DNA of 64,000 nucleotides from Methanobacteriota archaeon (GCA_016874675.1 VGTL01000002.1:9021-73020); one strand, 5' to 3'. Shown: positions 2,384 to 56,705, counted from the stretch's first letter. Program-made: numbers and translations. The notes: a model not told the origin generated them from the letters alone.

Positions 2384-5236
<2,853 letters not shown>

Positions 5237-5240
5237 GGAT

Positions 5241-5262
5241 TGAAGGGGCAAGGGGCAAGGGT
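5241..5262 (+). repeat. GGGGCAA heptad mini-array (G-quadruplex-capable) in uvrA-uvrC junction
   Basis: aaggggcaaggggcaaggg lies between the uvrA stop (TAA 5234..5236) and the uvrC ATG 5264. Same heptad unit as the dispersed repeat family. Doubles as a purine-rich RBS. Confidence 0.6.
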
Positions 5263-5263
5263 T

Positions 5264-7123
5264 ATGACGGGCAGGAGGGACCGCAGGGAAGGACCGCAAA
5301 AGCCCCCGCAGGGGTTCGATGTGAGGGCACGGGCCCGGGAACTGCCCGAGCTGCCCGGCGTCTACCAGTTCCTCGACGCTTCGGGAAAGGTCCTTTACAT
5401 CGGAAAAGCGCGGAACCTGCGGAAGCGGATAGACTCCTACATACGGCCGCACTCGTGGCTCATCCCCGCGATGCTCGAAAGGGCGCGCTCGCTCGATTAT
5501 ACCGTTACGAAGACGGACCGCGAATCCCTCATCCTGGAGGCGTCGATGGTCCGCCACCACAAGCCGAGGTACAACGTGAAGCTCAAGGACGACAAGAGGT
5601 TCCCGTACCTCAAGCTCACGAAGGAGGGGTTCCCCCGCCTGATCCATGTCCGCCGGACCGCCGACGACGGGGCGACCTACTTCGGGCCTTTCACCTTCGG
5701 CCCGATAAACCGGACGATGAGGTTCGTGCGCAGGCTCTTCGGGCTGCGGCCCTGCGCCAGCCTGCTCCCGCGGGGCTGCATCTACGGGGACATGGGGAAC
5801 TGCCTGGCGCCGTGCCGGGGGAAATGCACCCAGAAGGAGTACGCGGAGGCGGTGGGGCAGGCGGCCAGATACCTCTCGGGGGAGCACCGCGCCCTCCTGA
5901 CCGGCCTCGAAGAACGGATGGAGGAGCTCTCCGAGCGGCAGGAATACGAGAAGGCTGCGGCGATCCGGGACCAGATAAGGACCGTATCCAGGCTCGCGGC
6001 GCGGCAGAGGGTGGATTTCCTCGACCCGGCCGACCGCGACGCGATCGTCGTGAGGAGGGCCGGGGCGGAGAGGGCGCTTGCGCTCCACTACTCGATAAGG
6101 GGCGGCATCGTGGTGGCGAAGAAGCACTTCAGCCTCGACGCGCCCGAAGGGTTGGGGCCCGGCGATGTCCTCGAGGGCTTCCTGACGCAGTACTACGGCA
6201 ATGCCTCCCCGCCACCGGAGATAATGATGCCCGCGGCCGTCCCGGGGCGCGCCCTGGTCGAGGACTGGCTCTCCTCGGTGGCGGGGCGCAGGGTGCGCCT
6301 GCTCCTGCCGAAGAAGGGCCCCCGGAGGAGATTGCTCGGGCTTATGGAATCGGACCTCGCCGCGCTGGCGGCCGCGATGGAGGGCGGGAAGCCGAGGGAC
6401 GGAGCCTACGACGAGGCGGCGGCCGAGCTGCAGAAGTGGCTCTGCCTTCCCCGTGTGCCGGAGAGCATCGAGGCCTACGACATATCGACGATCCAGGGGA
6501 CGAGCTCGGTCGGGGCGAAGGTGCGCTTCGAGAACGGCCTGCCGGCGAAGAGCGGGTACCGGAGGTTCAGGATCAAGAGCGTCGCCGGGCAGGACGATTT
6601 CGCCATGATGGGCGAGGTCCTCTCACGGAGGATGGGTCATATGGACGACGACCCCTTGCCGGACCTGATGTTGATCGATGGAGGCAAGGGGCAGCTAGGG
6701 GCGGCGCTAGGAGCGATGAAGAGGGCCGGAGCGAAGGGCGAGGGCGTGAAGGGAGGGGACGCGAATGTGGCGGGCGCCCGGCCGGCCCTGGCCGCGCTTG
6801 CGAAAAGGGAGGAGGAGGTGTTCGTTCCGGGAGAGGAGGCGCCCCTGCCGATTCCCCCCGGGTCGAAGGCGCGGCTCCTGCTCCAGAGGGTCCGGGACGA
6901 GGCGCACCGCTTTGCGGTCGGCTACCACCGCAAGCTCCGATCGAGGGGGCAGACCGGTTCGGCGCTGGACAGGGTCGAGGGGCTGGGCGCGAAGAAGGCG
7001 GCGGCGCTGCTCCGGCGGTTCTCGTCCGTGGCGGGAATACGGGCGGCGTCCGAGGACGAGCTGAGGCAGGTGGAGGGGATCGGGCCGAAACTGGCCAGGC
7101 AGGTCAAGGAAACCCTCGGATAA
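5264..7123 (+). CDS. uvrC: excinuclease ABC subunit C (UvrC)
   Basis: GIY-YIG N-terminal nuclease domain (LPELPGVYQFLDASGKVLYIGKARNLRKRIDSY), UvrB-interacting region, and C-terminal RNaseH-like/HhH domain (GLGAKKAAALLRRFSSVAGIRAASEDEL). ORF track starts at TTG 5240; ATG 5264 is preferred. Confidence 0.9.
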   Translation: MTGRRDRREGPQKPPQGFDVRARARELPELPGVYQFLDASGKVLYIGKARNLRKRIDSYIRPHSWLIPAMLERARSLDYTVTKTDRESLILEASMVRHHKPRYNVKLKDDKRFPYLKLTKEGFPRLIHVRRTADDGATYFGPFTFGPINRTMRFVRRLFGLRPCASLLPRGCIYGDMGNCLAPCRGKCTQKEYAEAVGQAARYLSGEHRALLTGLEERMEELSERQEYEKAAAIRDQIRTVSRLAARQRVDFLDPADRDAIVVRRAGAERALALHYSIRGGIVVAKKHFSLDAPEGLGPGDVLEGFLTQYYGNASPPPEIMMPAAVPGRALVEDWLSSVAGRRVRLLLPKKGPRRRLLGLMESDLAALAAAMEGGKPRDGAYDEAAAELQKWLCLPRVPESIEAYDISTIQGTSSVGAKVRFENGLPAKSGYRRFRIKSVAGQDDFAMMGEVLSRRMGHMDDDPLPDLMLIDGGKGQLGAALGAMKRAGAKGEGVKGGDANVAGARPALAALAKREEEVFVPGEEAPLPIPPGSKARLLLQRVRDEAHRFAVGYHRKLRSRGQTGSALDRVEGLGAKKAAALLRRFSSVAGIRAASEDELRQVEGIGPKLARQVKETLG

Positions 7124-7898: not shown

Positions 7899-8654
7899 GT
7901 GTCCAAGCGCTGGTTCCGGGAGAAAAAGCGCGAGCACTTCTACAAGCTAGCCAAGAAGGAGCACTACCGCTCCCGCGCGGCCTACAAGCTCAAGCAGATA
8001 CAGGGCCGGTTCAACGTGATTCACTATGATTTCCTGGTCGTCGACCTGGGCGCATCCCCGGGCGGCTGGTCCCAGGTGGCGGCCGGGATAGCCGGCCGCA
8101 ACGGGAAGGTGGTCGCCATCGACCGGGCACGCATGAAGCCCGTGGAGGACGTCTTGGTCCTGCGCGGGGACATGACCAAGGACGAGACCGTGGCCGCGCT
8201 GTTCCGGGCCCTCGGGGGCCGGAAGGCGGACGTGGTGCTTTCGGACATGTCCCCGGACATCTCCGGGAACTACTCCATCGACCACGCCCGGTCAATCGAG
8301 CTTTGCGGGACCGCCCTGGCCTTCGCCCGCCGGGCCCTTCGCCCCGGGGGCAACCTCGTGGTCAAGGCCTTCCAGGGAGACCTCTTCGGCCGCTTCCTGG
8401 CCGCGGTCCGCCAAGACTTCAGAAACGTCCACGCCTTCCACCCGGAGGCCTCCCGCCCCTCGAGCTCGGAGATATACGTTGTCGCCAAGGGATACGGCAT
8501 GGAGGGCGATGGGGGGAAGGCGCGGGGCGCAGGGCGCAGGGCGCAAGGGAAGGAGCAAGGCGCAGGGCGCAAGGCGCAAGGGAAGGAGCAAGGGGCAAGG
8601 GGCAAGGGGCAAGGGATGGACGGAGGATTTCGGGAAAGGGCTGAGGAGGAATAG
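7899..8654 (+). CDS. rlmE: 23S rRNA (uridine-2-prime-O)-methyltransferase RlmE/FtsJ, with repeat-encoded low-complexity C-terminal tail
   Basis: N-terminus SKRWFREKKREHFYKLAKKEHYRSRAAYKL and SAM-binding VVDLGASPGGWSQV with K-D-K-E residues are typical FtsJ. GTG start. The last ~50 aa (GKARGAGRRAQGKEQGAGRKAQGKEQGARGKGQG...) are encoded by the heptad array. Confidence 0.85.
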   Translation: MSKRWFREKKREHFYKLAKKEHYRSRAAYKLKQIQGRFNVIHYDFLVVDLGASPGGWSQVAAGIAGRNGKVVAIDRARMKPVEDVLVLRGDMTKDETVAALFRALGGRKADVVLSDMSPDISGNYSIDHARSIELCGTALAFARRALRPGGNLVVKAFQGDLFGRFLAAVRQDFRNVHAFHPEASRPSSSEIYVVAKGYGMEGDGGKARGAGRRAQGKEQGAGRKAQGKEQGARGKGQGMDGGFRERAEEE

Positions 8655-8745
8655 GCCCCCGCTTCCCCCCTTGCTCCTTGCACCTTGACCCTTGCGCCTC
8701 CAGCCTTGCGCCTTGCGCCTTGCGCCTTGCGCCTTGATATTGCCC
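8515..8745 (+). repeat. heptad-array hairpin repeat (G-rich arm 8515..8627, C-rich complementary arm 8665..8745)
   Basis: Tandem GCGCAGG / GCGCAAG / GGGGCAA heptads, followed after a ~40-nt spacer by the complementary CCTTGCG / CCTTGCC heptads. Can form a very long imperfect hairpin. The G-rich arm contains a (G4 CAA)x3 GGG G-quadruplex motif at 8592..8615. Confidence 0.85.
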
Positions 8746-8756
8746 AAGCGCAATGC

Positions 8757-8763
8757 TTTTAAA
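8757..8763 (+). promoter_or_regulatory. TATA-like box (TTTTAAA) upstream of the L18e operon
   Basis: Only AT-rich heptamer between the repeat arm and the rpl18e ATG 8831. Confidence 0.25.
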
Positions 8764-8830
8764 CCCTTCCCGCGTTAGGGACACTTCACCGAGAGAAAGC
8801 CCGAGAGAAACGGGAAGGCGAGTGCGACCG

Positions 8831-9202
8831 ATGGGTAAAAGCAAGCTTGGGGGCAAGACCAGCGACGTCGTCAGGACGACGATAGAGGAGCTCAGGCTCG
8901 TCTCGAGGGCCAAGGGCGCCCCGGTCTGGCGGACCGTGGCGGACCGGCTCGAGCGGCCCCTCAGGAACTGGGCCGAGGTCAACCTGGACAAGGCCTCCGC
9001 CAGCCTCAAGGAGGGCGAGCTCGGCGTCGTCCCCGGCCGCGTCCTGGGCGGCGGCTCCGCCCGCAGGGGCCTCCAGATCGCCGCGTTCGGGTTCTCCAAG
9101 GGGGCCCGGGAGAAGCTTCTGGCCGCCGGCGGGAGGGCGATGAGCCTCACGGAGGCCGCGGACTCGAACCCCAAGGGCACCAATGTCAGGATTCTGGGGT
9201 GA
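8831..9202 (+). CDS. rpl18e: 50S ribosomal protein L18e (eL18)
   Basis: MGKSKLGGKTSDVVRTTIEELRLVSRAKGAPVWRTVADRLERP is the typical L18e N-terminus. ORF 8753 includes an upstream GTG/TTG extension; ATG 8831 is preferred. Confidence 0.85.
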   Translation: MGKSKLGGKTSDVVRTTIEELRLVSRAKGAPVWRTVADRLERPLRNWAEVNLDKASASLKEGELGVVPGRVLGGGSARRGLQIAAFGFSKGAREKLLAAGGRAMSLTEAADSNPKGTNVRILG

Positions 9203-9627: not shown

Positions 9628-10041
9628 ATGCCGTCCAAGACAGTCCAGGCAGTCGTTGCGACCGGGCGCCGCAAGACCGCGCTCGCCCGGGCCACGGTGA
9701 CCAAGGGCACCGGGAGGATAAGGGTGAACCGCATCCCGCTTGACATATACCGGCCGGAGCTCGCGAGGCTGCGCATCGCCGAGCCGCTGCACATCGCCGG
9801 GGCCGCCGTCAGGAAGGTGGACATCGAGGTCGCCGTCAGCGGCGGCGGTGTCATGGGGCAGGCCTCCGCCGCCCGCACCGCCATTGCCCGCGGCCTCGTC
9901 CGCTTCCTCGACGACAAGGAGCTCGACGACACCTTCCGGCTGTTCGACCGGAGCATCATGGTCAACGACGTGCGCCAGAAGGAGCCCAAGCACCAGCTGG
10001 GCCGGGGCGCACGGAAGAAGCGCCAGAAATCGTACAGATGA
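9628..10041 (+). CDS. rps9: 30S ribosomal protein S9 (uS9)
   Basis: [34 protein letters not shown] and C-terminal KKRQKSYR are typical S9. Confidence 0.9.
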
Positions 10042-10050
10042 GGGGAGACA

Positions 10051-10242
10051 ATGATAATACCGGTGCGCTGCTTCACCTGCGGCAAGGTGATTGGGTCGTC
10101 CTACGAGGCGTACAAGAAGCGCCTGGAGCTCGGCGAGAAGCCCAAGGAGGTCCTGGACTCGCTGGGCATCAACCGGTACTGCTGCCGCAGGATGATAATC
10201 TCCCACGCCGACCTCATAGACGACGTCATGCCCTACAGCTGA
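10051..10242 (+). CDS. rpoN: DNA-directed RNA polymerase subunit N (RpoN/Rpb10)
   Basis: 63 aa: [25 protein letters not shown]...YCCRRM. Carries the Rpb10 zinc-binding CxxC...CC motif. Confidence 0.9.
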
Positions 10243-10333
10243 GCGGCGGGCCCCCGGGCCCGCCGGCACGGACGGCACCGGCCCGGCCCGGCCGGGCGGG
10301 CGGCCGTCCCGAGACCGCAAGGGGGAACGGAAG

Positions 10334-10882
10334 ATGCCCACGAACGTGGAGCTGGTAAAGAAGGTCTGCCTTATTGGCGACCCCGGGGTGGGCAAGACCA
10401 GCCTCATCCGGCGCTTCGTGCTGGACCAGTTCTCCGACGACTACCTGTCCACCATCGGCGCCAAGGTGACCAAGAAGGAGAAGCTCATAGACATCAAGGA
10501 GCACGACCTGCGGGTCCACCTCAACCTGATGATCTGGGACGTCGCCGGCCAGAAGGAGTACCAGCAGTTCCACGAGATGTACCTCAAGGGCATGGAGGGC
10601 GTCCTGGCGGTCTGCGACCTCTCGCGGCGAAACACCTTCGAGCGGCTCAAGGACTCGCTTCGGCTCGTCGAGAAGCACGCCGGGAGCATCCCGGTCGTCT
10701 TCATGCTCAACAAGGCCGACCTGGTCGACCTCCCGGCCTTGGACCTGAGGGAGGTCAACGCCCTGGCCTCACAGCGGGGCATACCGGTCCTGCCCACGAG
10801 CGCCAAGACCGGGCAGAACGTCGAATCCTCCTTCAGCAAGCTGACGATGATGATAATTCGGGACTGGCTGGCGACGAAATAG
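10334..10882 (+). CDS. Ras-superfamily small GTPase (Rab/Ras-like, all five G motifs)
   Basis: G1 GDPGVGKTSL, G2 T in STIGA, G3 WDVAGQ, G4 NKAD, G5 SAK. 182 aa. RBS GGGGGAA before ATG. Immediately follows rpoN, in the position normally held by rpoK/eno/rps2. Confidence 0.8.
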   Translation: MPTNVELVKKVCLIGDPGVGKTSLIRRFVLDQFSDDYLSTIGAKVTKKEKLIDIKEHDLRVHLNLMIWDVAGQKEYQQFHEMYLKGMEGVLAVCDLSRRNTFERLKDSLRLVEKHAGSIPVVFMLNKADLVDLPALDLREVNALASQRGIPVLPTSAKTGQNVESSFSKLTMMIIRDWLATK

Positions 10883-10898: not shown

Positions 10899-11909
10899 TC
10901 AGGAGGCCCTGGGGCCGGAGCTCTTCCACCCCTTCGGGTAGGTCCCCGTCGGCATGAGGATTCTCTGGGGCGTGACGGCGATTCCCTGGTTGGTCTCCAT
11001 CATGGCCTCGGAGGCCATCTCGGCGGTGCCCAGGGCGACGCCCTCGCCCTTGGCGGTGAGCACCGCCACCCGGTCCCCCTTCGCTATCCCGCTGTCGAGG
11101 GCCACGAGCCCCGGGACCGCCAGCCGGGCCCCGTGGCACACGGCGTCCACCGCCCCGTCGCGGATGACCACCGCCGGGAGGTGCGAGAGGAGGGCCTCCA
11201 TGGGCCGCACTGCCGCCCGGAGCGGCCCCTCCTCATGGTCCTCCTTCCAGAACACGAAGGCGTCCTTGAGGTCGTGGAGCGTCACGGCCTCCCTCTCGAC
11301 GAAGCGGGCGGTCCTGGTGCGCCGGAGCTCCTGCATGTGGGCGCCCACGCCCAGAACCTCGCCGACGTCGGCGCAGAGGGTGCGGATGTAGGTGCCGGCC
11401 TGGCAGGCCGCCGAGAAGAGCACGTCCCGCCCGTCCACCTCGAGCACCGCGAGCCTGTACACCCGCCGGCTCCTCTGCTGGCGCTTTACCGCCGACCGCA
11501 GGGGCGGCACCTGGAAGATCTCGTCTTCGAACTCCGATAGCACCGAGCGGACCTTGTCCTCGCGCACGTCCTTGTGGAGCTTCATGTAGCAGACGTACTC
11601 CTTGCTCGCGTATAGCAGCGAGCCCACCGCCTTGGTGGCCTGGTCCAGCGTGACCGGCAGCACGCCCGTGACGTTGGGGTCCAGCGTGCCCCCGTGGCCG
11701 GCCCGGGGGACGCCCAGAAGGTCCCGCGCCCAGGCCGCCACCTGGTGGCTGGTCGGCCCGGCCGGCTTGTCCAAGACGACCACGCCCAGGCGGAGCAGGG
11801 CCTCGGCGCAGCGCTTCCCGGGCTCGGCGCCGAAGGCCGGGTCGGACGAAAAATCCGCCCTGACCAGCCGCCGGCGGTTGACGAACGAGGGGTCGGTGGT
11901 CTCGGGCAT
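10899..11909 (-). CDS. cbf5: tRNA/rRNA pseudouridine synthase Cbf5 (TruB family, H/ACA RNP catalytic subunit) with PUA domain
   Basis: TruB catalytic motif GHGGTLDPNVTGVLPV and C-terminal PUA region. ORF track extends the start to 12182, but that extension overlaps cmk and is low-complexity. ATG 11909 (MPETTDP) is chosen. Confidence 0.85.
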   Translation of the reverse strand: MPETTDPSFVNRRRLVRADFSSDPAFGAEPGKRCAEALLRLGVVVLDKPAGPTSHQVAAWARDLLGVPRAGHGGTLDPNVTGVLPVTLDQATKAVGSLLYASKEYVCYMKLHKDVREDKVRSVLSEFEDEIFQVPPLRSAVKRQQRSRRVYRLAVLEVDGRDVLFSAACQAGTYIRTLCADVGEVLGVGAHMQELRRTRTARFVEREAVTLHDLKDAFVFWKEDHEEGPLRAAVRPMEALLSHLPAVVIRDGAVDAVCHGARLAVPGLVALDSGIAKGDRVAVLTAKGEGVALGTAEMASEAMMETNQGIAVTPQRILMPTGTYPKGWKSSGPRAS

Positions 11910-13188: not shown

Positions 13189-13204
13189 AACGGTTGTTGA
13201 GGTT

Positions 13205-13328
13205 GGTCAAAGGCAGCAAGGCAGAAGGGCAGGAAGGGAGAAAGGCAGAAAGGGAGAACGGGGGGTCGACCGTCAGTCCCTTTCTGCCTTCCTGCCTTCC
13301 TGCCTTTGCCCGTTGCCCCTTGCCCCCC
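13205..13328 (+). repeat. heptad-array hairpin repeat between secY and DUF106 gene
   Basis: aaaggcagcaaggcagaagggcaggaagggagaaaggcagaaagggag, spacer, then complement ccctttctgccttcctgccttcctgcctttgccc. Contains the 21-mer ggcaggaagggagaaaggcag, also present at 29217 and (reverse complement) 28462. Confidence 0.85.
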
Positions 13329-13341
13329 GTGGGGCCGCTTA

Positions 13342-29198: not shown

Positions 29199-29214
29199 TA
29201 TACTATGTAATAAG

Positions 29215-29275
29215 AAGGCAGGAAGGGAGAAAGGCAGCAAGGCAGCAAGGGGCGGTGGCGCAGGGCGCAAGCGAC
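29215..29275 (+). repeat. purine-rich heptad array adjacent to L3 operon promoter
   Basis: aagaaggcaggaagggagaaaggcagcaaggcagcaaggggcggtggcgcagggcgcaagcg, including the shared 21-mer at 29217..29237. Confidence 0.8.
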
Positions 29276-30289: not shown

Positions 30290-30515
30290 CCCCTGCACCC
30301 TGCACCCTGAGTTTCCCTTGCGCCTTGCGCCTTCCTAACCCCGCACTGAAGTGCGGGGCTTCAACGCTTTCCTATGTTGACCGACCCCGGACTCAAGTCC
30401 GGGGTATCTAGCTTTCAACCTTGCGCCTTGCGCCTTGCGCCCTGCGCCTTCCCATCGCGCCTTGCGCCGTCGTCCCCTGCTCCCTTGCTGCCTTGCTGCC
30501 TTGCTCCCTTGCTCC
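30290..30515 (+). repeat. composite repeat module between convergent genes: heptad arrays + two near-identical GC hairpins + atctagctttca box
   Basis: cccctgcaccctgcaccctg...cccttgcgccttgcgcc; hairpin ccccgcac-tgaa-gtgcgggg (30339..30358); hairpin ccccggac-tcaa-gtccgggg (30385..30404); atctagctttca (30406..30417); then accttgcgccttgcgccttgcgccctgcgcc...cccttgctgccttgctgccttgctccc. Confidence 0.85.
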
Positions 30516-30521
30516 CCTCGT

Positions 30522-30992
30522 CTATTCCTTCACCATATACACTTTCTTCATCCTGTCGCCCATCTGTATCCGGTCGACGACCTCGATGCCCTCGAGGACC
30601 TGGCCGAAGACGGTGTGCTTGCCGTCGAGGTGCGGCGTCGGGACGTGGCAGATGAAGAACTGGCACGAGCCGGTGTCGCGCCCCTTGTGGGCCATGGACA
30701 GCGAGCCGCGCTGGTGGCGCCGGCGGTTGTGGTCCACCTCGCACTTTATCGTGTAGCCGGCGTCGCCCGTGCCGTTGCCCTTGGGGTCCCCGCCCTGGAT
30801 CATGAAGCCCGGGATGACGCGGTGGAACTTGATACCGTTGTAGAAGCCCTTCTTGACGAGCTTCAGGAAGTTGTCCACCGTGCCGGGAGCGTCGTTCTTG
30901 TAGAGCTCCAAAACGATCTTGCCCTTGTCCGTCTCCATCGCCACCACTGGAAGGTTCCCCTCTGCCGGCATCATGACCACCTTCGAGCCCAT
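30522..30992 (-). CDS. peptidyl-prolyl cis-trans isomerase, cyclophilin type
   Basis: [25 protein letters not shown] and [20 protein letters not shown] are cyclophilin signatures. True start probably internal (MPAEG.. or METDKG..). Confidence 0.88.
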
Positions 30993-33628: not shown

Positions 33629-33671
33629 GCGCGCGCGAGTATAATAAGATGTCGCAATGAAAGGTGGGAAG

Positions 33672-33850
33672 AAGAAGGCACAGGGCGCAAGGCGCAGGGC
33701 GCAGGGCTTGAGGGTAAAGGCGCAAGGGGCAAGGGGCAAGGTGAAGAACCCTTTCCTCCCTTGCGCCTTCACCCTTGCGCCTTTACCCTCAAGCCCTGCG
33801 CCCTGCGCCTTGCGCCTTGCGCCTTCCCTTGCGCCCTGCGCCTTGCGCCC
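33672..33850 (+). repeat. heptad-array hairpin repeat in divergent promoter region (surface protein / thrS)
   Basis: ggcacagggcgcaaggcgcagggcgcagggcttgagggtaaaggcgcaaggggcaaggggcaaggtg; short spacer; complementary ccttgcgccttcacccttgcgcctttaccctcaagccctgcgccctgcgccttgcgccttgcgcc. A long near-perfect palindrome. Confidence 0.85.
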
Positions 33851-33902
33851 CGTTCTCGGGAAACCTTTATCTTGGCCCGTCCGTCTAGGGGGCCCGATAG
33901 CG

Positions 33903-45980: not shown

Positions 45981-46022
45981 ATGAATAATTAAACTATGCC
46001 GGAAAATTACTATACGATTCGC

Positions 46023-46153
46023 GAAAGGCAGAAAGGCAGGAAGGCAGCAAGGCAGCAAGGGGGAACGGAACGAACCGTCGTCCCCTTGTTGCCCTGCTGC
46101 CTTTCTGCCTTGCTGCCTCCCTTGCTGCCTTGCTGCCTTTCTCCCTTGCTGCC
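46023..46153 (+). repeat. heptad-array hairpin repeat between CDF gene start and tRNA-Ile
   Basis: gaaaggcagaaaggcaggaaggcagcaaggcagcaaggggg; spacer; ccccttgttgccctgctgcctttctgccttgctgcctcccttgctgccttgctgcctttctcccttgctgcc. Confidence 0.85.
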
Positions 46154-46211
46154 CGATCTTCCCTACTGGAAATATATTAAAATACCCCGGTGTTATTTAG
46201 TGCCCCGCAAC

Positions 46212-46286
46212 GGGCCCATAGCTTAGACTGGCTGGAGCGCCCGGCTGATAACCGGGCGGTCGAGAGTTCAAATCTCTCTGGGCCCA
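46212..46286 (+). tRNA. tRNA-Ile (anticodon GAT)
   Basis: 75-nt cloverleaf: acceptor GGGCCCA/TGGGCCC, anticodon stem CCCGG/CCGGG with loop CTGATAA, T-arm GAGAG-TTCAAAT-CTCTC, discriminator A. Confidence 0.85.
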
Positions 46287-46469
46287 TGCATCCCCGAAGG
46301 GGATGCAGGCGCCTCAGCGCACAGAGATTTCAAGATTTTGATGAAACTTTTAATTGCGAACAAAGGAAGGAATTAAAAGTTTCGTTCAAATCTCTCTGGG
46401 CCCATGCATCCCCGAAGGGGATGCAGGCGCCTCAGCGCACAGAGATTTCAAGATTTTGATGAAACTTTT
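46267..46469 (+). repeat. 85-bp tandem direct repeat (2 copies, 118-bp period) including the last 20 nt of tRNA-Ile; att-site-like
   Basis: Copy 1 at 46267..46351 and copy 2 at 46385..46469 are identical: ttcaaatctctctgggcccatgcatccccgaaggggatgcaggcgcctcagcgcacagagatttcaagattttgatgaaactttt. Each contains the 9-bp-stem hairpin gcatcccc-gaa-ggggatgc. Confidence 0.85.
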
Positions 46470-48361: not shown

Positions 48362-49528
48362 TCAGCTTTCGCGCTTTGCCATGAACCTCATGAGGGCCTT
48401 GAACTTCTCGGCCTGCTCCCGGCTGCCGAAGCCCCTCATCTCGTCCACCATCGACACGGCCTGCCTGCAGAGCGCCGCCGCCGCCTCCACGGCCCAGCCG
48501 GAGACCTTCTTCTTCCCGTCGACGACCTCCCAGTCCACTATGCCGTGCTTCCGGAACAGGCCCGCCACCCAGGCGATGTCCTTTCCGGTGGTCCGCTCGC
48601 GGGGCTTGCGGAATATCGCAACGAGCCTCTCCTTCTCCGAAGGCGAGGCGCAGTCGAGCGCCCTGGCGAAGAGCGCCGAGGGCTTGCCCTCGCGGATGTC
48701 GTTGCCCAGCTCCGGCCTCCCGTCCCTCCCGACCCGACCCTTGCCGGAGGTGAGGTCGATGACGTCGTCGAGCATCTGGAAGGCGACGCCGACGTTACCG
48801 CCGAGCTTCCAGAGCGTGTCGATGGAGGCGCGGTCCAGCCCGGCGAGCACGGCCGAGCCCACCACGCCGAAGATGAGGTAGTAGCCCGTCTTGAGGGTGG
48901 CGAGCTCGACGTACCGGTCCACGGTGAAGCCGGCGTCCGCCCGGAGGTTGACGTCGAGCGACTGGCCCTCGCCGGTCTTCACGAGCGTGGTCGCCAGGAT
49001 GCCGCAGAGCGCCGCCCGCTTCCCGGGAGGAAGGTGCGAGGAGGTGACGGCCTCGAAGGCCTTGGCCATCATGTAGTCGCCGGCGTTGATGCCGTTGGCG
49101 ATGCCGATGTCACCGAGCTTGAGCCCGCGGGTTATGGAGCGCCGGTAGTCGCCCTTCCGCCTCTCGGCGTCGGTGCCGTACCTCACCCACACCGCCGGCA
49201 GGTCGCGCCGCGAGGTGTCGCCGTCCATCACGTCGTCGTGGCATATCAGGTAGTTGTGGGCGAGCTCGGTGGCCGCGGCGAACGGGAGCGCGTCCGCAAG
49301 CGGCACCCCGAGGCACTCGGCCGAAAGCAGGCAGAACATCGGGCGGGAGCGCTTGGGGCCCTTCCCGGTCGCCGGGTCTATGCAGTCGTCGCCGATGTGG
49401 TACCAGACCGGGCCGTTGAGGTGGCGGGCGTAGGGGCCGTCCCGGGGCAGCACCCGCTCTATCTGGGCCCGCACGAGGGGCCACTTCTCGGCGGTGTAGC
49501 CGAGCACCCAGCCGCTCTCGAACTCCAT
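48362..49528 (-). CDS. idsA: polyprenyl diphosphate synthase (geranylgeranyl diphosphate synthase, IdsA-like)
   Basis: First Asp-rich motif LICHDDVMDGD and second motif FQMLDDVIDL. Start ATG 49528 (MEFESGW). Confidence 0.85.
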   Translation of the reverse strand: MEFESGWVLGYTAEKWPLVRAQIERVLPRDGPYARHLNGPVWYHIGDDCIDPATGKGPKRSRPMFCLLSAECLGVPLADALPFAAATELAHNYLICHDDVMDGDTSRRDLPAVWVRYGTDAERRKGDYRRSITRGLKLGDIGIANGINAGDYMMAKAFEAVTSSHLPPGKRAALCGILATTLVKTGEGQSLDVNLRADAGFTVDRYVELATLKTGYYLIFGVVGSAVLAGLDRASIDTLWKLGGNVGVAFQMLDDVIDLTSGKGRVGRDGRPELGNDIREGKPSALFARALDCASPSEKERLVAIFRKPRERTTGKDIAWVAGLFRKHGIVDWEVVDGKKKVSGWAVEAAAALCRQAVSMVDEMRGFGSREQAEKFKALMRFMAKRES

Positions 49529-49547
49529 GGCGTTCCCCCGGTGCCAT

Positions 49548-49642
49548 TGCGGTTGCGGGGATTCGAACCCCGGTTTGAAGCTGGTCCCGGCGCGCGGTGG
49601 CGCCATGGGAAGCTCCAGTCCTAACCACTAGACTACAACCGC
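49548..49642 (-). tRNA. tRNA-Gly (anticodon CCC) with a ~23-nt canonical-position intron
   Basis: Reverse complement: GCGGTTG TA GTCT AGTGGTTA GGAC T GGAGC TTCCCA [TGGCGCCACCGCGCGCCGGGACC] A GCTTC AAAC CGGGG TTCGAAT CCCCG CAACCGC A. Intron follows anticodon-loop position 37. Confidence 0.65.
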
Positions 49643-53594: not shown

Positions 53595-54086
53595 TCACTG
53601 CTTGTCCGGGATCTCCTCGATGCCGTTCTCCTGGACGCGCGTCCAGACGTCCTCGGGGATGTCCTGATAGACCGACGCCTCCACCGGACAGGCGGACTCG
53701 TCTTTCTCCTTCCCGGCGTCGATGAGCGCCGCGATGCGGTCCATCCGGAAGAGCCAGTAGTGGATCCTCCACTCGCGGCCGTCGTAGAGCGTGGTCTCCT
53801 CGCGCTCGGTGGTCAGCAGGCCGGCGTCCTCGAGCATGTAGAACGCGTCCCGGTCCTCCGGCTCCAAGACATTGTCGATGATCCTGTCGTTGTAGCCGAA
53901 GAAGTTCATGATGTGCTTGGCCATGTCCCGGGCGGCGGTCTCCTCCATTCCCTTCCGGTCGATGCTGTTCTTTATCGCTTTGGTGAGTCCCTCGACCGAG
54001 AGCAGATGGCCCGAGCACTGCATATTATCGGGGCCGTTCATAGGCTCCTTTCCCCCATTTTCACCTTGGTAAAAATGTATATGCAC
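53595..54086 (-). CDS. hypothetical acidic protein
   Basis: 163-aa ORF; the GTG start lies inside the AT-rich promoter island, so the true start is probably internal (MNGPDNMQ...). No recognisable motifs. Confidence 0.45.
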   Translation of the reverse strand: MHIHFYQGENGGKEPMNGPDNMQCSGHLLSVEGLTKAIKNSIDRKGMEETAARDMAKHIMNFFGYNDRIIDNVLEPEDRDAFYMLEDAGLLTTEREETTLYDGREWRIHYWLFRMDRIAALIDAGKEKDESACPVEASVYQDIPEDVWTRVQENGIEEIPDKQ

Positions 54087-54819: not shown

Positions 54820-55188
54820 CTAGCTCAGGGTCTCCTTGATGAGCCGGCTGGCGACCTCGGCGCTGGAGAGGAGCTGCTCCACCCCGTCGCGGCCCTCCTT
54901 GAGCACGACCAGGATGGCCTTCGTGCCGGCATCGACCGCCACCAGGACGCAGTCGTGCCCCTCCACGACGATGCGGTCCGGGCCGGTCTTGTTGAACTCG
55001 GACAGGGCCGCGCTGGCTGCACCGCTCATGGTCGCCCCCATGGCGGCGAAGGTCTCGGAGTGGGCCTCCTCGGAGGCGCTGGCCGTTATGACTATACCAC
55101 CGCGGCTGACCAGGACCGCGCCGATGACGTTTGGGAGCTGGCGCAATTCCCGGACAATCCGCTCAAGTTGCTCGGCCTTGGCAACCAT
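54820..55188 (-). CDS. Roadblock/LC7 domain protein (MglB-like)
   Basis: 122 aa: LPNVIGAVLVSRGGIVITASASEEAHSETFAAMGATMSGAA...HDCVLVAVDAGTKAILVVL. Alpha-beta-beta-alpha-beta-beta Roadblock pattern. TATA-like atataaac ~27 nt upstream on minus strand (55214..55221). Confidence 0.7.
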   Translation of the reverse strand: MVAKAEQLERIVRELRQLPNVIGAVLVSRGGIVITASASEEAHSETFAAMGATMSGAASAALSEFNKTGPDRIVVEGHDCVLVAVDAGTKAILVVLKEGRDGVEQLLSSAEVASRLIKETLS

Positions 55189-55271: not shown

Positions 55272-55360
55272 GGGGAAGGGGAGCGGGCAGCGGGCAGCGG
55301 GCAGCGGGGAGCGGTGACGGAACGAATCCGTCCGTCCACCGCTCCCCGCTGCCCCGCTGG
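55272..55360 (+). repeat. GGGCAGC heptad-array hairpin (15-bp perfect stem cagcggggagcggtg / caccgctccccgctg)
   Basis: ggggaaggggagcgggcagcgggcagcgggcagcggggagcggtgacggaacgaatccgtccgtccaccgctccccgctgccccgctgg. Confidence 0.85.
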
Positions 55361-55377
55361 ATCAATTGGAGGGAATG

Positions 55378-55450
55378 TGCCGAGGGAGGGAGTCGAACCC
55401 CCAGGAAACGGATCTGCAGTCCGTCACATTAGCCGCTCTGTCACCTCGGC
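55378..55450 (-). tRNA. tRNA-Cys (anticodon GCA)
   Basis: Reverse complement: GCCGAGG TG ACAG AGCGGCTA ATGT G ACGGA CTGCAGA TCCGT TTCCT GGGGG TTCGACT CCCTC CCTCGGC A. D-stem only 3 bp, so confidence is moderate. Confidence 0.6.
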
Positions 55451-55497
55451 TTGTCCATCCCACATCGGGGGGAACCGATTTGAATATTTCGCGCGAT

Positions 55498-55630
55498 GGC
55501 AGGGTGCAGGGTGCAGGGTGCGGGGTGCGGGGTGCGGGGTAACGTACGGTGTCCATCTTGAACCCGGTACCCCATGCCCCGAGATATCCCCCGCACCCTG
55601 CACCCTGCACCCTGCACCCCGCACCCTGCG
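55498..55630 (+). repeat. GCAGGGT/GCGGGGT heptad-array hairpin with G-quadruplex motif
   Basis: (gcagggt)x3(gcggggt)x3; 50-nt spacer; complement (cccgcac)(cctgcac)x3 cccgcaccctgcgg. Confidence 0.85.
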
Positions 55631-55703
55631 GTCGGCCACGAGCTTTATATTGTCGTTCGGACATCCCGGTTTCCCTTCGCCAGGGGGAGCTGGTAGGGTT
55701 CGC

Positions 55704-56705
55704 ATGAACCTTGGTCGGCGGCTTGTGATCGCCATCGGTGGAAATGCAATCCTGCAAGAGGGCCAGAGGGGCACCGCCGAGGAGCAACGGGCCAACCTGG
55801 AGGTCGCCTGCGAGTCCCTCGCCGCGCTCATCCGCCCCGGCGTCAATGTCGTCCTCACGCACGGGAACGGCCCCCAGGTGGGGAACATTCTCGTCCAGAA
55901 CGAGGCCGCCAGGGCGCAGGTGCCGGCGCTCCCGCTCGATGTCTGCGGGGCCCAGTCCCAGGGCTCCCTGGGCTATCTGATCCAGCAGGTCCTGTCCGGA
56001 GTCCTCCGGAGCCGCAACATCCGGCGCGATGTGATGGCGCTCGTCACCCAGACCGTGGTGTCCCCCGACGACCCGGCGTTCCTCTCCCCGAGCAAGCCCA
56101 TCGGCCCATATTACAGGGAGCCCGAGGCCCGCGCTCTCTCGCAGGAGAAGGGATGGAAGCTCGTCGAGGTCGGCAAGCGCCACTGGCGGAGGGTGGTGGC
56201 CTCGCCCGACCCGCTGGAGATCGTGGAGAAGGGGATGATCCGGAAGCTCATGCGCCAGGGGACGGTCGTCATAGCGGCAGGCGGCGGGGGCATCCCGGTG
56301 GTGCGGCGCGACGGGAGGCTCGCCGGCGTGGAGGCGGTTGTCGACAAGGACCTGGCCTCGGCCACCCTGGCGCGCGATGTCGGGGCCGACGCGATGATCC
56401 TGCTCACTGACATAGAGAAGGTGGCCATCAACTTCCGCACCCCGGAGGAGCGGTTCCTGGACCGGATGACCGTGGAGGAGGCGGGGCGATATCTCAAGGC
56501 GGGCCACTTTCCGGCGGGGAGCATGGGACCGAAGATAGAGGCGGCGATCAGGTTCCTGGCCCCCAGGCCGGAGCCCACGCTGGACTCGTTTGGCGCGCCG
56601 GGAGCCCGGTTCTCCCGCCCGCAGCTCAAGGTCATCATAGCCTCCCTGAACGCCGCCGAGCGGGCAGCCCGCGGGAAGACCGGCACCACCATCACCCCGG
56701 ACTGA
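55704..56705 (+). CDS. arcC: carbamate kinase
   Basis: MNLGRRLVIAIGGNAI start, HGNGPQVG, and AAGGGGIPV are carbamate kinase signatures. ATG 55704; the ORF track extension runs through the repeat and tRNA. Confidence 0.85.
   Translation: MNLGRRLVIAIGGNAILQEGQRGTAEEQRANLEVACESLAALIRPGVNVVLTHGNGPQVGNILVQNEAARAQVPALPLDVCGAQSQGSLGYLIQQVLSGVLRSRNIRRDVMALVTQTVVSPDDPAFLSPSKPIGPYYREPEARALSQEKGWKLVEVGKRHWRRVVASPDPLEIVEKGMIRKLMRQGTVVIAAGGGGIPVVRRDGRLAGVEAVVDKDLASATLARDVGADAMILLTDIEKVAINFRTPEERFLDRMTVEEAGRYLKAGHFPAGSMGPKIEAAIRFLAPRPEPTLDSFGAPGARFSRPQLKVIIASLNAAERAARGKTGTTITPD

Follow-up and report, generated by a model that had tools for sequence, protein, structure and literature searches.

A small GTPase gene downstream of rpoN

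We analysed a 64-kb stretch of DNA (64 000 nt, 66.3% G+C; hereafter the window), in which the genes for ribosomal proteins L18e, L13 and S9 and for RNA polymerase subunit N are followed on the same strand by a gene for a putative Ras-like small GTPase. An Rfam scan of the window returned four tRNAs and nothing else. The features at the locus, numbered from the first nucleotide of the window, are as follows:

7899–8654, plus strand: FtsJ/RlmE-like rRNA methyltransferase (Pfam FtsJ, 8.7e-56)
8758–8764, plus strand: TATA-like box TTTTAAA, a conserved A/T run and candidate promoter of the L18e-to-GTPase operon
8831–9202, plus strand: ribosomal protein L18e (Pfam Ribosomal_L18 and L27A; gene call on the identical contig L001)
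9183–9617, plus strand: ribosomal protein L13 (Pfam Ribosomal_L13, 1.8e-19)
9628–10041, plus strand: ribosomal protein S9 (Pfam Ribosomal_S9, 5.1e-36)
10051–10242, plus strand: rpoN, RNA polymerase subunit N/Rpb10 (Pfam RNA_pol_N, 3.6e-31)
10243–10333, plus strand: spacer between rpoN and the GTPase gene, 91 bp, 87% G+C, with two hairpins and a GGGGG
10334–10882, plus strand: predicted Rab-like (Rup-type) small GTPase, 182 aa (ATG start; Pfam, NCBIfam, AlphaFold2 and Foldseek)
10899–11909, minus strand: cbf5, pseudouridine synthase, convergent (DKCLD/TruB_N/PUA gene call in L001; tblastn 100%)

The identity of rpoN was corroborated by the NCBIfam equivalog PRK04016 (114.8 bits, cut-off 79). 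On the 5′ side, FtsJ is separated from L18e by a gap of 176 bp that contains the candidate promoter, which argues for a separate transcription unit. On the 3′ side, the stop codons of the GTPase gene and of the convergent cbf5 are 16 bp apart. The plus-strand unit ends at cbf5, beyond which lie cmk, an EMC3/TMCO1-like gene, secY and a large ribosomal-protein cluster. An earlier note on this DNA had already described the GTPase gene as the last one before cbf5, preceded by a GC-rich spacer with its own ribosome-binding site, and had pointed to the absence of rpoK, enolase and rps2. These descriptions held: the spacer is exactly 91 bp long with GGGGG (10321–10325) as a Shine–Dalgarno-like element 8 nt upstream of the ATG, and Pfam scans of 37 ORFs from the 64-kb window found neither rpoK nor enolase nor rps2, which in this host must therefore lie outside the window. 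No second copy of the GTPase gene was found within the 64 kb.

The product is a stand-alone G domain

Both its sequence and its structural model show that the 182-aa product consists of a single Ras-superfamily G domain that stands alone and is Rab-like, or of 'Rup' type. The ORF matched Pfam Ras (PF00071) with an E-value of 2.2e-35 and 122 bits (cut-off 21.6) over residues 10–174, followed by Roc (3.3e-29); the match to Arf was far weaker (48 bits). Of the NCBIfam models, the one to match was small_GTP (TIGR00231; 85 bits, cut-off 42.5), which describes the generic domain. All five G motifs by which membership of the Ras superfamily is judged could be read from a single G domain, at the places given in the earlier note: G1 as GDPGVGKT (residues 15–22, nt 10376–10399), G2 as T40 within YLSTIGAK, G3 as WDVAGQ (residues 68–73, with DVAGQ at nt 10538–10552), G4 as NKAD (residues 126–129, nt 10709–10720) and G5 as SAK (residues 156–158, nt 10799–10807). 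The exact protein is present in the database as 'GTP-binding protein [Euryarchaeota archaeon]'.

The protein carries no extra domain, its C-terminus (...IIRDWLATK) has no cysteine, and its N-terminus (MPTNVELVKK) passes directly into strand β1 (residues 3–15 in the AlphaFold2 model) with no N-terminal amphipathic helix. It is therefore likely to be soluble and to depend on protein partners for its recruitment.

Several properties identify the ORF as a real gene rather than a chance reading frame. Its GC3 of 0.93 and GC2 of 0.33 match those of neighbouring genes, and its codon usage ranked 13th among 60 ORFs on an index built on the ribosomal-protein genes of the window. Comparison with four orthologues (83–85% identity) yielded dN/dS values of 0.17–0.19; the gene is under purifying selection. 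Furthermore, AlphaFold2 produced a Ras-like α/β fold with a mean pLDDT of 87.1 and a pTM of 0.85. When this model was compared to the PDB with Foldseek, 1710 matches were obtained at E ≤ 1e-3, the best 45 of which were Rabs, with HRas as the first non-Rab at rank 46. The closest structures were Rab11, Rab8, Sec4, Rab1 and Rab5 (E ∼1e-15, TM 0.75–0.82), as exemplified by Rab11a (E = 8.8e-16, TM 0.75/0.80). A sequence search of the PDB likewise returned Rab, Sec4 or Ypt proteins for all of the best 60 matches (human Rab1A, 1.7e-25; a Thorarchaeota Rab, 2e-23), the closeness to Rabs over other branches being in both cases a similarity ranking and not a phylogeny.

Comparison with known GTPase families

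Rab-like proteins of a Thermoplasmatales archaeon and of Aciduliprofundum were reported by Surkont and Pereira-Leal (2016; PMC4915359), whose archaeal set also comprised Lokiarchaeum, Thermofilum and Caldiarchaeum. In their trees, the Thermoplasmatales and Aciduliprofundum proteins formed long branches and were not placed with eukaryotic Rabs. The GTPase described here resembles the proteins of that study in being single-domain and ∼180 aa long, with Rab, not Ras, Rho, Ran or Arf, as the most similar branch, as well as in having the catalytic DxxGQ and a short C-terminus without prenylation cysteines. It differs in two respects. That study recorded one copy in each of two Thermoplasmatota genomes, whereas we found the family in Thermoplasmata, Methanomassiliicoccales and Poseidoniia, with several paralogues per genome, and its text makes no mention of a ribosomal gene context ('ribosomal' occurs 0 times; PMC4915359), whereas our GTPase gene ends a ribosomal-protein operon.

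The name Rup was given by Wuichet and Søgaard-Andersen (2014; PMC4316618) to prokaryotic Ras superfamily GTPases of unknown function. These keep the aspartate of G3, have nothing inserted between G1 and G2, are shorter than 240 aa and are not coupled to mglB. With a G3 aspartate (D69), eukaryote-like G1–G5 motifs, no G1–G2 insertion, 182 residues and no Roadblock neighbour, our protein would be classed by these published criteria as Rup-type, and as neither MglA nor Arf. Of the groups named so far, Rup1 is bacterial and lacks the G3 glutamine, Rup2 is from Thermoproteaceae (PMC4316618), and Rup3 is from Heimdallarchaeia. In contrast to Rup1, the protein studied here keeps the G3 glutamine.

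MglA, the other prokaryotic small Ras-like GTPase considered, is part of the MglA/MglB polarity switch of bacteria and Euryarchaeota; it has no aspartate in G3, and its gene lies beside mglB (PMC4316618). A Roadblock/LC7 gene does occur in the same window, at positions 54820–55188, where it is both the nearest to the GTPase gene and the only one found. However, it lies 44 kb away and the G3 motif is WDVAGQ; given the G3 aspartate and the lack of an adjacent Roadblock gene, we rejected an assignment to MglA. A tblastn search with the Roadblock protein of the window (E ≤ 1e-3), which is sensitive to relatives of that protein, had no match in 178 GTPase/rpoN loci. Candidates for a GAP, GEF or effector of the GTPase were likewise not found.

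Two further assignments were rejected. Arf, Sar and ArfR proteins have WDxGGQ at G3 in place of WDVAGQ, and the Pfam score of the GTPase for Arf is well below that for Ras (48 against 122 bits). As for the ribosome-biogenesis GTPases, the protein has no KH, OB or Obg domain, and its NCBIfam scores remained far below the respective cut-offs for Era (23.5 bits, cut-off 237), Der (20.6, 306.7), YlqF (18.3, 208), Obg (∼15.7, 280–406) and HflX (15, 217).

The comparison with eukaryotic Rabs requires more attention. The two have their G motifs in common, among them WDxAGQ and the TIG of switch I, with 30–34% sequence identity and the TM values given above. However, the archaeal protein has no C-terminal CC, CXC or CCXX prenylation motif and no hypervariable tail, its P-loop reads GDPGVGKT, with proline at the position of Ras Gly12, where Rabs have GDSGVGKS, and its β2–β3 hairpin is six residues longer than that of Rab1A in the alignment. 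The RabF1–F5 motifs, which Pereira-Leal and Seabra reportedly set out in 2000, are said to be IGVDF, KLQIWDTAGQE, RFRSIT, YYRGA and LVYDIT. In the Rab1A alignment, the corresponding segments are IGAKV (2/5 identical), NLMIWDVAGQK (7/11), EYQQFH (0/6), YLKGM (2/5) and AVCDLS (2/6), amounting to ∼13 of 33 identical positions, with RabF2 largely kept and RabF3–F5 poorly so. Judged by the prenylation motif and by RabF1–F5, the protein was not assigned to the eukaryotic Rabs.

A large Rab-like family in Thermoplasmatota

Many authors regard Ras/Rab-like GTPases as almost confined to eukaryotes and Asgard archaea, and the earlier note, too, had called them rare in archaea outside Asgard. For Thermoplasmatota this does not hold. 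We obtained 4452 homologues of the GTPase at E ≤ 1e-3, with >100 of them at ≥50% identity and ∼180–200 aa in length, and confirmed at least 349 loci of the family when one genome of each GTDB species was scanned; members had also been published in 2016 (PMC4915359). Relatives with ∼65% identity carry the NCBI name 'Rab family GTPase [Thermoplasmata/Thermoplasmatota archaeon]'. The 80 matches listed in the scan were all from archaeal MAGs, and all 53 with a finer label (that is, more specific than 'archaeon' or 'Methanobacteriota') were Thermoplasmatota. The groups represented among these listed loci were Thermoplasmata, Methanomassiliicoccales, Poseidoniia (MGII/III) and Proteinoplasmatales.

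Paralogues are frequent in this family. In 35 of the 80 listed loci a second one lay no more than a few kb away, in most cases as a tandem copy, and several genomes recurred two or three times among the matches listed. In this one-genome-per-species scan, the listed matches had an identity of at most 55% and none was linked to rpoN. Other family members, at 40–66% identity, were found in contexts unrelated to the rpoN operon, namely next to HTH regulators, adhesin-like or CARDB/PKD proteins and transporters, or as tandem GTPase pairs.

We counted motif conservation over 190 distinct family sequences (median length 184 aa). D69 was invariant (190/190), and together with G72, N126, K127, S156 and A157 it belongs to a set of residues each kept in 189–190 of the sequences. 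The catalytic glutamine of G3 was more variable: it was kept in 149 of the 190 and is replaced in two of the ten rpoN-linked orthologues (by N and H), for which reason the mechanism of hydrolysis may differ among orthologues. Proline at the Ras-Gly12 position was found in 111 of 190 family sequences and in all ten linked ones. A cysteine within the last six residues was rare (6/190), which argues against Rab-style prenylation in the family.

A literature search on Ras-superfamily or Ras-like GTPases of Thermoplasmatota or Euryarchaeota gave no match. The family is also not one of the named groups (MglA, Rup1–3, RasL, ArfL, ArfR and Rag) of PMC4316618 and of a recent classification of prokaryotic GTPases, in which a term search returned no mention of Thermoplasmatota or Euryarchaeota. 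The Thermoplasmatota Rab-like family is thus known and annotated, yet little described. Taken singly, the gene in our window is ordinary, being annotated and canonical in sequence; it belongs to a known kind and, with the family so common in the phylum, is more a small oddity than an unexpected find. The most useful by-product of its analysis is the large family itself, which has no name in the GTPase classifications searched: a whole euryarchaeal phylum holds a large, paralogue-rich and essentially unstudied set of Rab-like proteins. This is relevant to arguments in which Ras/Rab-like proteins serve as indicators of eukaryote-like cell biology.

The rpoN–GTPase order is conserved in one sub-lineage

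By exact-protein look-ups and a metagenome scan, we collected ten distinct versions of the locus in which the GTPase gene is linked to rpoN. Linkage was present in every locus with a GTPase identity of ≥81% (L005/6, L095–L099 and L120) and in three deeper lineages, with GTPase identities of 66% (L100), 65% (L007/8; GCA_038870335.1) and 62% (L092). A check of synteny in relatives, which the earlier note had suggested, thus came out in favour of a conserved arrangement: wherever the linked contigs extend far enough, FtsJ and then L18e-L13-S9-rpoN precede the GTPase gene, with FtsJ seen upstream in L005, L007, L092, L097, L100 and L120. The 3′ side is less constant. The series cbf5-cmk-EMC3-secY follows in the window and in L007, and a DUF58/DUF4350/TgpA transglutaminase cluster takes its place in L005 and L092. 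Since the 3′ neighbours vary while the 5′ order is constant, the GTPase gene travels with rpoN.

The RpoN proteins of all linked loci were 89–95% identical to that of the window, compared to 85, 82, 75 and 72% in four Thermoplasmatota lineages without the link. In all four of the latter, the L18e-L13-S9-rpoN operon stops at rpoN, FtsJ is not upstream of L18e, and neither rpoK-eno-rps2 nor a GTPase gene follows rpoN; instead, we found a methyltransferase, a transposase fragment, a rubrerythrin gene on the opposite strand and an LRR protein, respectively. The earlier note had remarked that this operon continues with rpoK, enolase and rps2 in most archaea, but ends with the GTPase gene here. Because the operon of these four lineages also ends at rpoN, and does so without the GTPase, the absence of rpoK-eno-rps2 is a general trait of these Thermoplasmatota rather than an effect of the GTPase, which does not take their place. 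The site behind rpoN is a variable slot and a rearrangement hot-spot in the phylum.

The earlier note had also raised the possibility that the protein belongs to a widespread euryarchaeal family routinely found at this position. The first part proved correct, as the protein clusters firmly within such a family, but the position behind rpoN is routine in one sub-lineage only. In a neighbour-joining tree of the 190 sequences, the ten linked genes formed one clean clade. In the tree of a 48-taxon subset they were paraphyletic, with an unlinked group (51–66% identity) nesting beside two linked genes and a bootstrap of 37/100 for monophyly. A single capture of the linked GTPase is thus likely but not firmly supported. 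The rpoN–GTPase gene order is confined to one lineage and apparently has not been reported before.

Promoter and spacer sequences point to co-transcription

The TTTTAAA at position 8758 is the sole A/T run of ≥6 nt in the 200 nt upstream of L18e. A TATA-like box was present at −73 to −77, inside GCAATGCTTTTAAAC, in each of the six linked lineages for which the sequence extends far enough, and the alignment of linked lineages further revealed that a near-invariant leader, ∼45 nt long, follows it.

The 91-bp spacer between rpoN and the GTPase gene folds into GC-rich hairpins at 10244–10265 and 10270–10309. Its predicted folding energy of −61.9 kcal/mol (z = −0.87) was no better than that of shuffled sequences, and the window alone gives no indication of a selected RNA structure in the spacer. 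A scan for A/T runs and T-runs detected no TATA-like element and no T-run in these 91 bp. A scan for sigma-70 promoters and hairpin-plus-T terminators, ill-suited to archaea, found nothing near the GTPase gene. The ten linked versions have GC-rich rpoN–GTPase spacers throughout, with lengths of 6, 6, 13, 49, 49, 49, 69, 90, 91 and 95 bp. None of the ten contains an A/T-rich element, and a short TTTT run was seen in L099 alone. In the longer orthologous spacers, GGGGG is kept 8–15 nt upstream of the GTPase start.

Given the conserved gene order, the content of the spacers and the single conserved promoter upstream of L18e, co-transcription of the GTPase gene is likely; one promoter and a five-gene transcript from L18e to the GTPase gene would be the most economical reading of these sequences. 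The operonic linkage put forward in the earlier note thereby gained in plausibility, with the order conserved in relatives, spacers down to 6 bp and neither TATA-like element nor T-run in that of the window. A promoter may also exist inside rpoN, for example at the AT-rich ATGATAAT at position 10192, a sequence that is also forced by Met-Ile-Ile coding. The spacers of 6 and 13 bp disfavour such a promoter. The two strong hairpins of the 91-bp spacer could attenuate read-through.

A putative switch, probably expressed together with ribosomal proteins

Taking these observations together, we consider it probable that the gene encodes a canonical, non-lipidated GTP/GDP switch and forms the terminal cistron of the L18e-L13-S9-rpoN operon, with its expression tied to ribosome synthesis. 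Transcription would start at the TATA-like box near 8758 and read through the GC-rich spacer to the GTPase gene, which would be translated from its own Shine–Dalgarno-like GGGGG. Being part of a ribosomal-protein mRNA, its level should track the synthesis of ribosomes and RNA polymerase and hence growth. As for the protein, motifs and fold suggest that guanine nucleotide is bound via the P-loop GDPGVGKT, NKAD and SAK, that Thr40 and Gly72 coordinate Mg2+ and the γ-phosphate, and that intrinsic GTP hydrolysis would proceed through Gln73. The GTPase would then cycle between a GTP-bound 'on' and a GDP-bound 'off' state, each binding different partners. In evolutionary terms, one member of a paralogue-rich Thermoplasmatota family may have been captured into the variable slot behind rpoN and then kept. 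The arrangement offers a testable handle on the family, namely a defined orthologue with predictable expression, and this linked orthologue could be an entry to the role of such switches in archaea without endomembranes.

It seems unlikely to us that the GTPase gene has its own promoter and is parked in a permissive slot with no co-regulation. Spacers of 6, 6 and 13 bp are too short for an archaeal TATA/BRE outside the rpoN coding sequence, an A/T-rich element is present in none of the ten spacers, and the gene order is retained even where different genes follow on the 3′ side. This has to be weighed against the long, structured 91-bp spacer with its separate Shine–Dalgarno-like element, the character of the post-rpoN position as a rearrangement hot-spot in the phylum and the lack of a fixed context for the GTPase family as a whole, all of which speak for such a parked gene.

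We are similarly doubtful that the GTPase acts with its operon partners in the assembly of the ribosome, the translation apparatus or RNA polymerase, for example as a checkpoint beside FtsJ/RlmE. Down to a GTPase identity of 62–66%, the gene stays linked to L18e-L13-S9-rpoN despite rearrangement on the 3′ side, which speaks for such a role, but unrelated genes fill the same slot in sister lineages and the closest relatives outside the lineage lie beside transcription regulators, adhesin-like proteins, transporters and tandem GTPases. FtsJ is likewise a lineage-specific neighbour, yet the promoter-bearing gap of 176 bp places it in a different transcription unit. Similarly, the codon usage of the GTPase gene is near that of ribosomal-protein genes, whereas the protein itself is unlike Era, Der, YlqF and Obg, all far below their cut-offs. 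The housekeeping or regulatory role that the earlier note had derived from the neighbouring genes is weakened in the same way, because the post-rpoN slot is variable and most family members occur in unrelated contexts. We give an equally low chance to the orthologue having been fixed as a constitutive operon cistron and serving as a growth-coupled switch on the assembly of the ribosome, RNA polymerase or secretion machinery. If true, no Ras/Rab-type GTPase would have been seen before as an integral part of core archaeal information-processing operons.

Finally, a genuine Rab, or a protein derived from Asgard archaea or eukaryotes by horizontal transfer, with membrane-trafficking functions is highly improbable: eukaryotic Rabs and a Thorarchaeota Rab are indeed the best sequence and structure matches and relatives are labelled 'Rab family GTPase' by NCBI, but the C-terminus (RDWLATK) has no prenylatable cysteine, as in all but six of the 190 family sequences, RabF3–F5 are poorly conserved with ∼13/33 RabF positions identical, and published trees left the Thermoplasmatales and Aciduliprofundum Rab-like proteins unplaced with eukaryotic Rabs (PMC4915359). 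Horizontal transfer from eukaryotes or Asgard archaea was rejected on the native composition and codon usage of the gene and on the depth of the Thermoplasmatota family. The identity of 40–85% to hundreds of Thermoplasmatota proteins, as against ∼30–34% to Rabs, points to a long vertical history within the phylum.

Conserved elements around the rpoN-GTPase gene order

Alignment of the regions upstream of L18e showed that a candidate promoter and leader are kept in all lineages in which the GTPase gene follows L18e-L13-S9-rpoN, with GCAATGCTTTTAAACC first and the near-invariant GCGTTAGGGACACTTCACCGAGAGAAAGCCCG after it (L-numbers denote loci of relatives, in their own coordinates):

L18e promoter-plus-leader in linked lineages
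8745-8830, window
2509-2585, L120
2465-2541, L097
2085-2160, L100
3426-3503, L092
4502-4581, L007

The leader contains a small hairpin (GCCCG/CGGGA) with one or two compensatory changes and may serve in ribosomal-protein autoregulation. It was absent from the upstream regions of the four unlinked Thermoplasmatota compared, in which a TATA-like box sits at -49 to -54.

At 2-5 nt past the rpoN stop codon, the rpoN-GTPase spacer carries a GC-rich hairpin (GCGGGCC-loop-GGCCCGC; window 10244-10265), which is found again, with different loops, in relatives with 49-bp spacers (L095, L097 and L098) and is missing in relatives whose spacer is 6 bp. Its role might be to fix the relative expression of rpoN and the GTPase, or to shield a processed 3′ end.

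Variation and pairing in the GTPase family

Of the 190 family members aligned, 41 have another residue in place of the catalytic Gln of DxxGQ (Glu in 22, His in 13), and so do two of the ten rpoN-linked orthologues: L092 (AGNQ; GTPase at about 5001-5552) and one more, which has His. Pro occupies the Ras-Gly12 position in 111 of the 190 members, including all ten rpoN-linked ones, and on the aligned sequences is a hallmark of the family.

Among the matches listed, diverged paralogues very often form tandem pairs across Thermoplasmatota (L016, L020, L021, L024, L025, L027, L030, L034, L036, L040 and 25 more loci). The paired GTPases are about 35-45% identical to the query and lie on the same strand with gaps of 30-350 bp, an arrangement that suggests two-GTPase modules. 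The sole candidate small-GTPase regulator within the window is a Roadblock/LC7 protein encoded 44 kb from the GTPase; tblastn (E ≤ 1e-3) found no relatives of it near the 178 GTPase/rpoN loci.

Roadblock/LC7 gene and neighbours
54820-55188 (-), Roadblock/LC7 (MglB-like) protein, 122 aa
54124-54801, metallophosphoesterase
53595-54086, DUF6015

Repeats and tRNA genes in the window

Intergenic DNA of the window holds tandem-repeat arrays with units of 7-14 nt (GGCGCAAGG / CCTTGCGCC types), frequently as facing inverted pairs. One array extends into FtsJ at its 3′ end, where it codes for the protein's low-complexity tail; at the same place in relatives, upstream of the L18e promoter, the repeat units differ from those of the window.

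Arrays and tRNA genes
8500-8615, 8661-8740, 13202-13334, 29207-29260, 30411-30530, 33670-33851, 46009-46167 and 55571-55628, repeat arrays
46212-46286, tRNA-Ile(GAT)
49548-49642 (-), tRNA, 95 nt, no anticodon assigned by ARAGORN
55378-55450 (-), tRNA-Cys

The last 21 nt of tRNA-Ile(GAT) and the 65 nt downstream recur exactly at 46384-46469 (86 nt, 100%), with 32 bp of A/T-rich filler between the two copies (region 46212-46469). This duplication resembles what an element leaves behind at its att site on integration or excision; alternatively, it may be an artefact of assembly. The 95-nt tRNA, which probably contains an intron, lies inside the 5′ end of the mechanical ORF 48362-49606, and tRNA-Cys inside that of 55314-56705; the real start codons of both ORFs must be further in.
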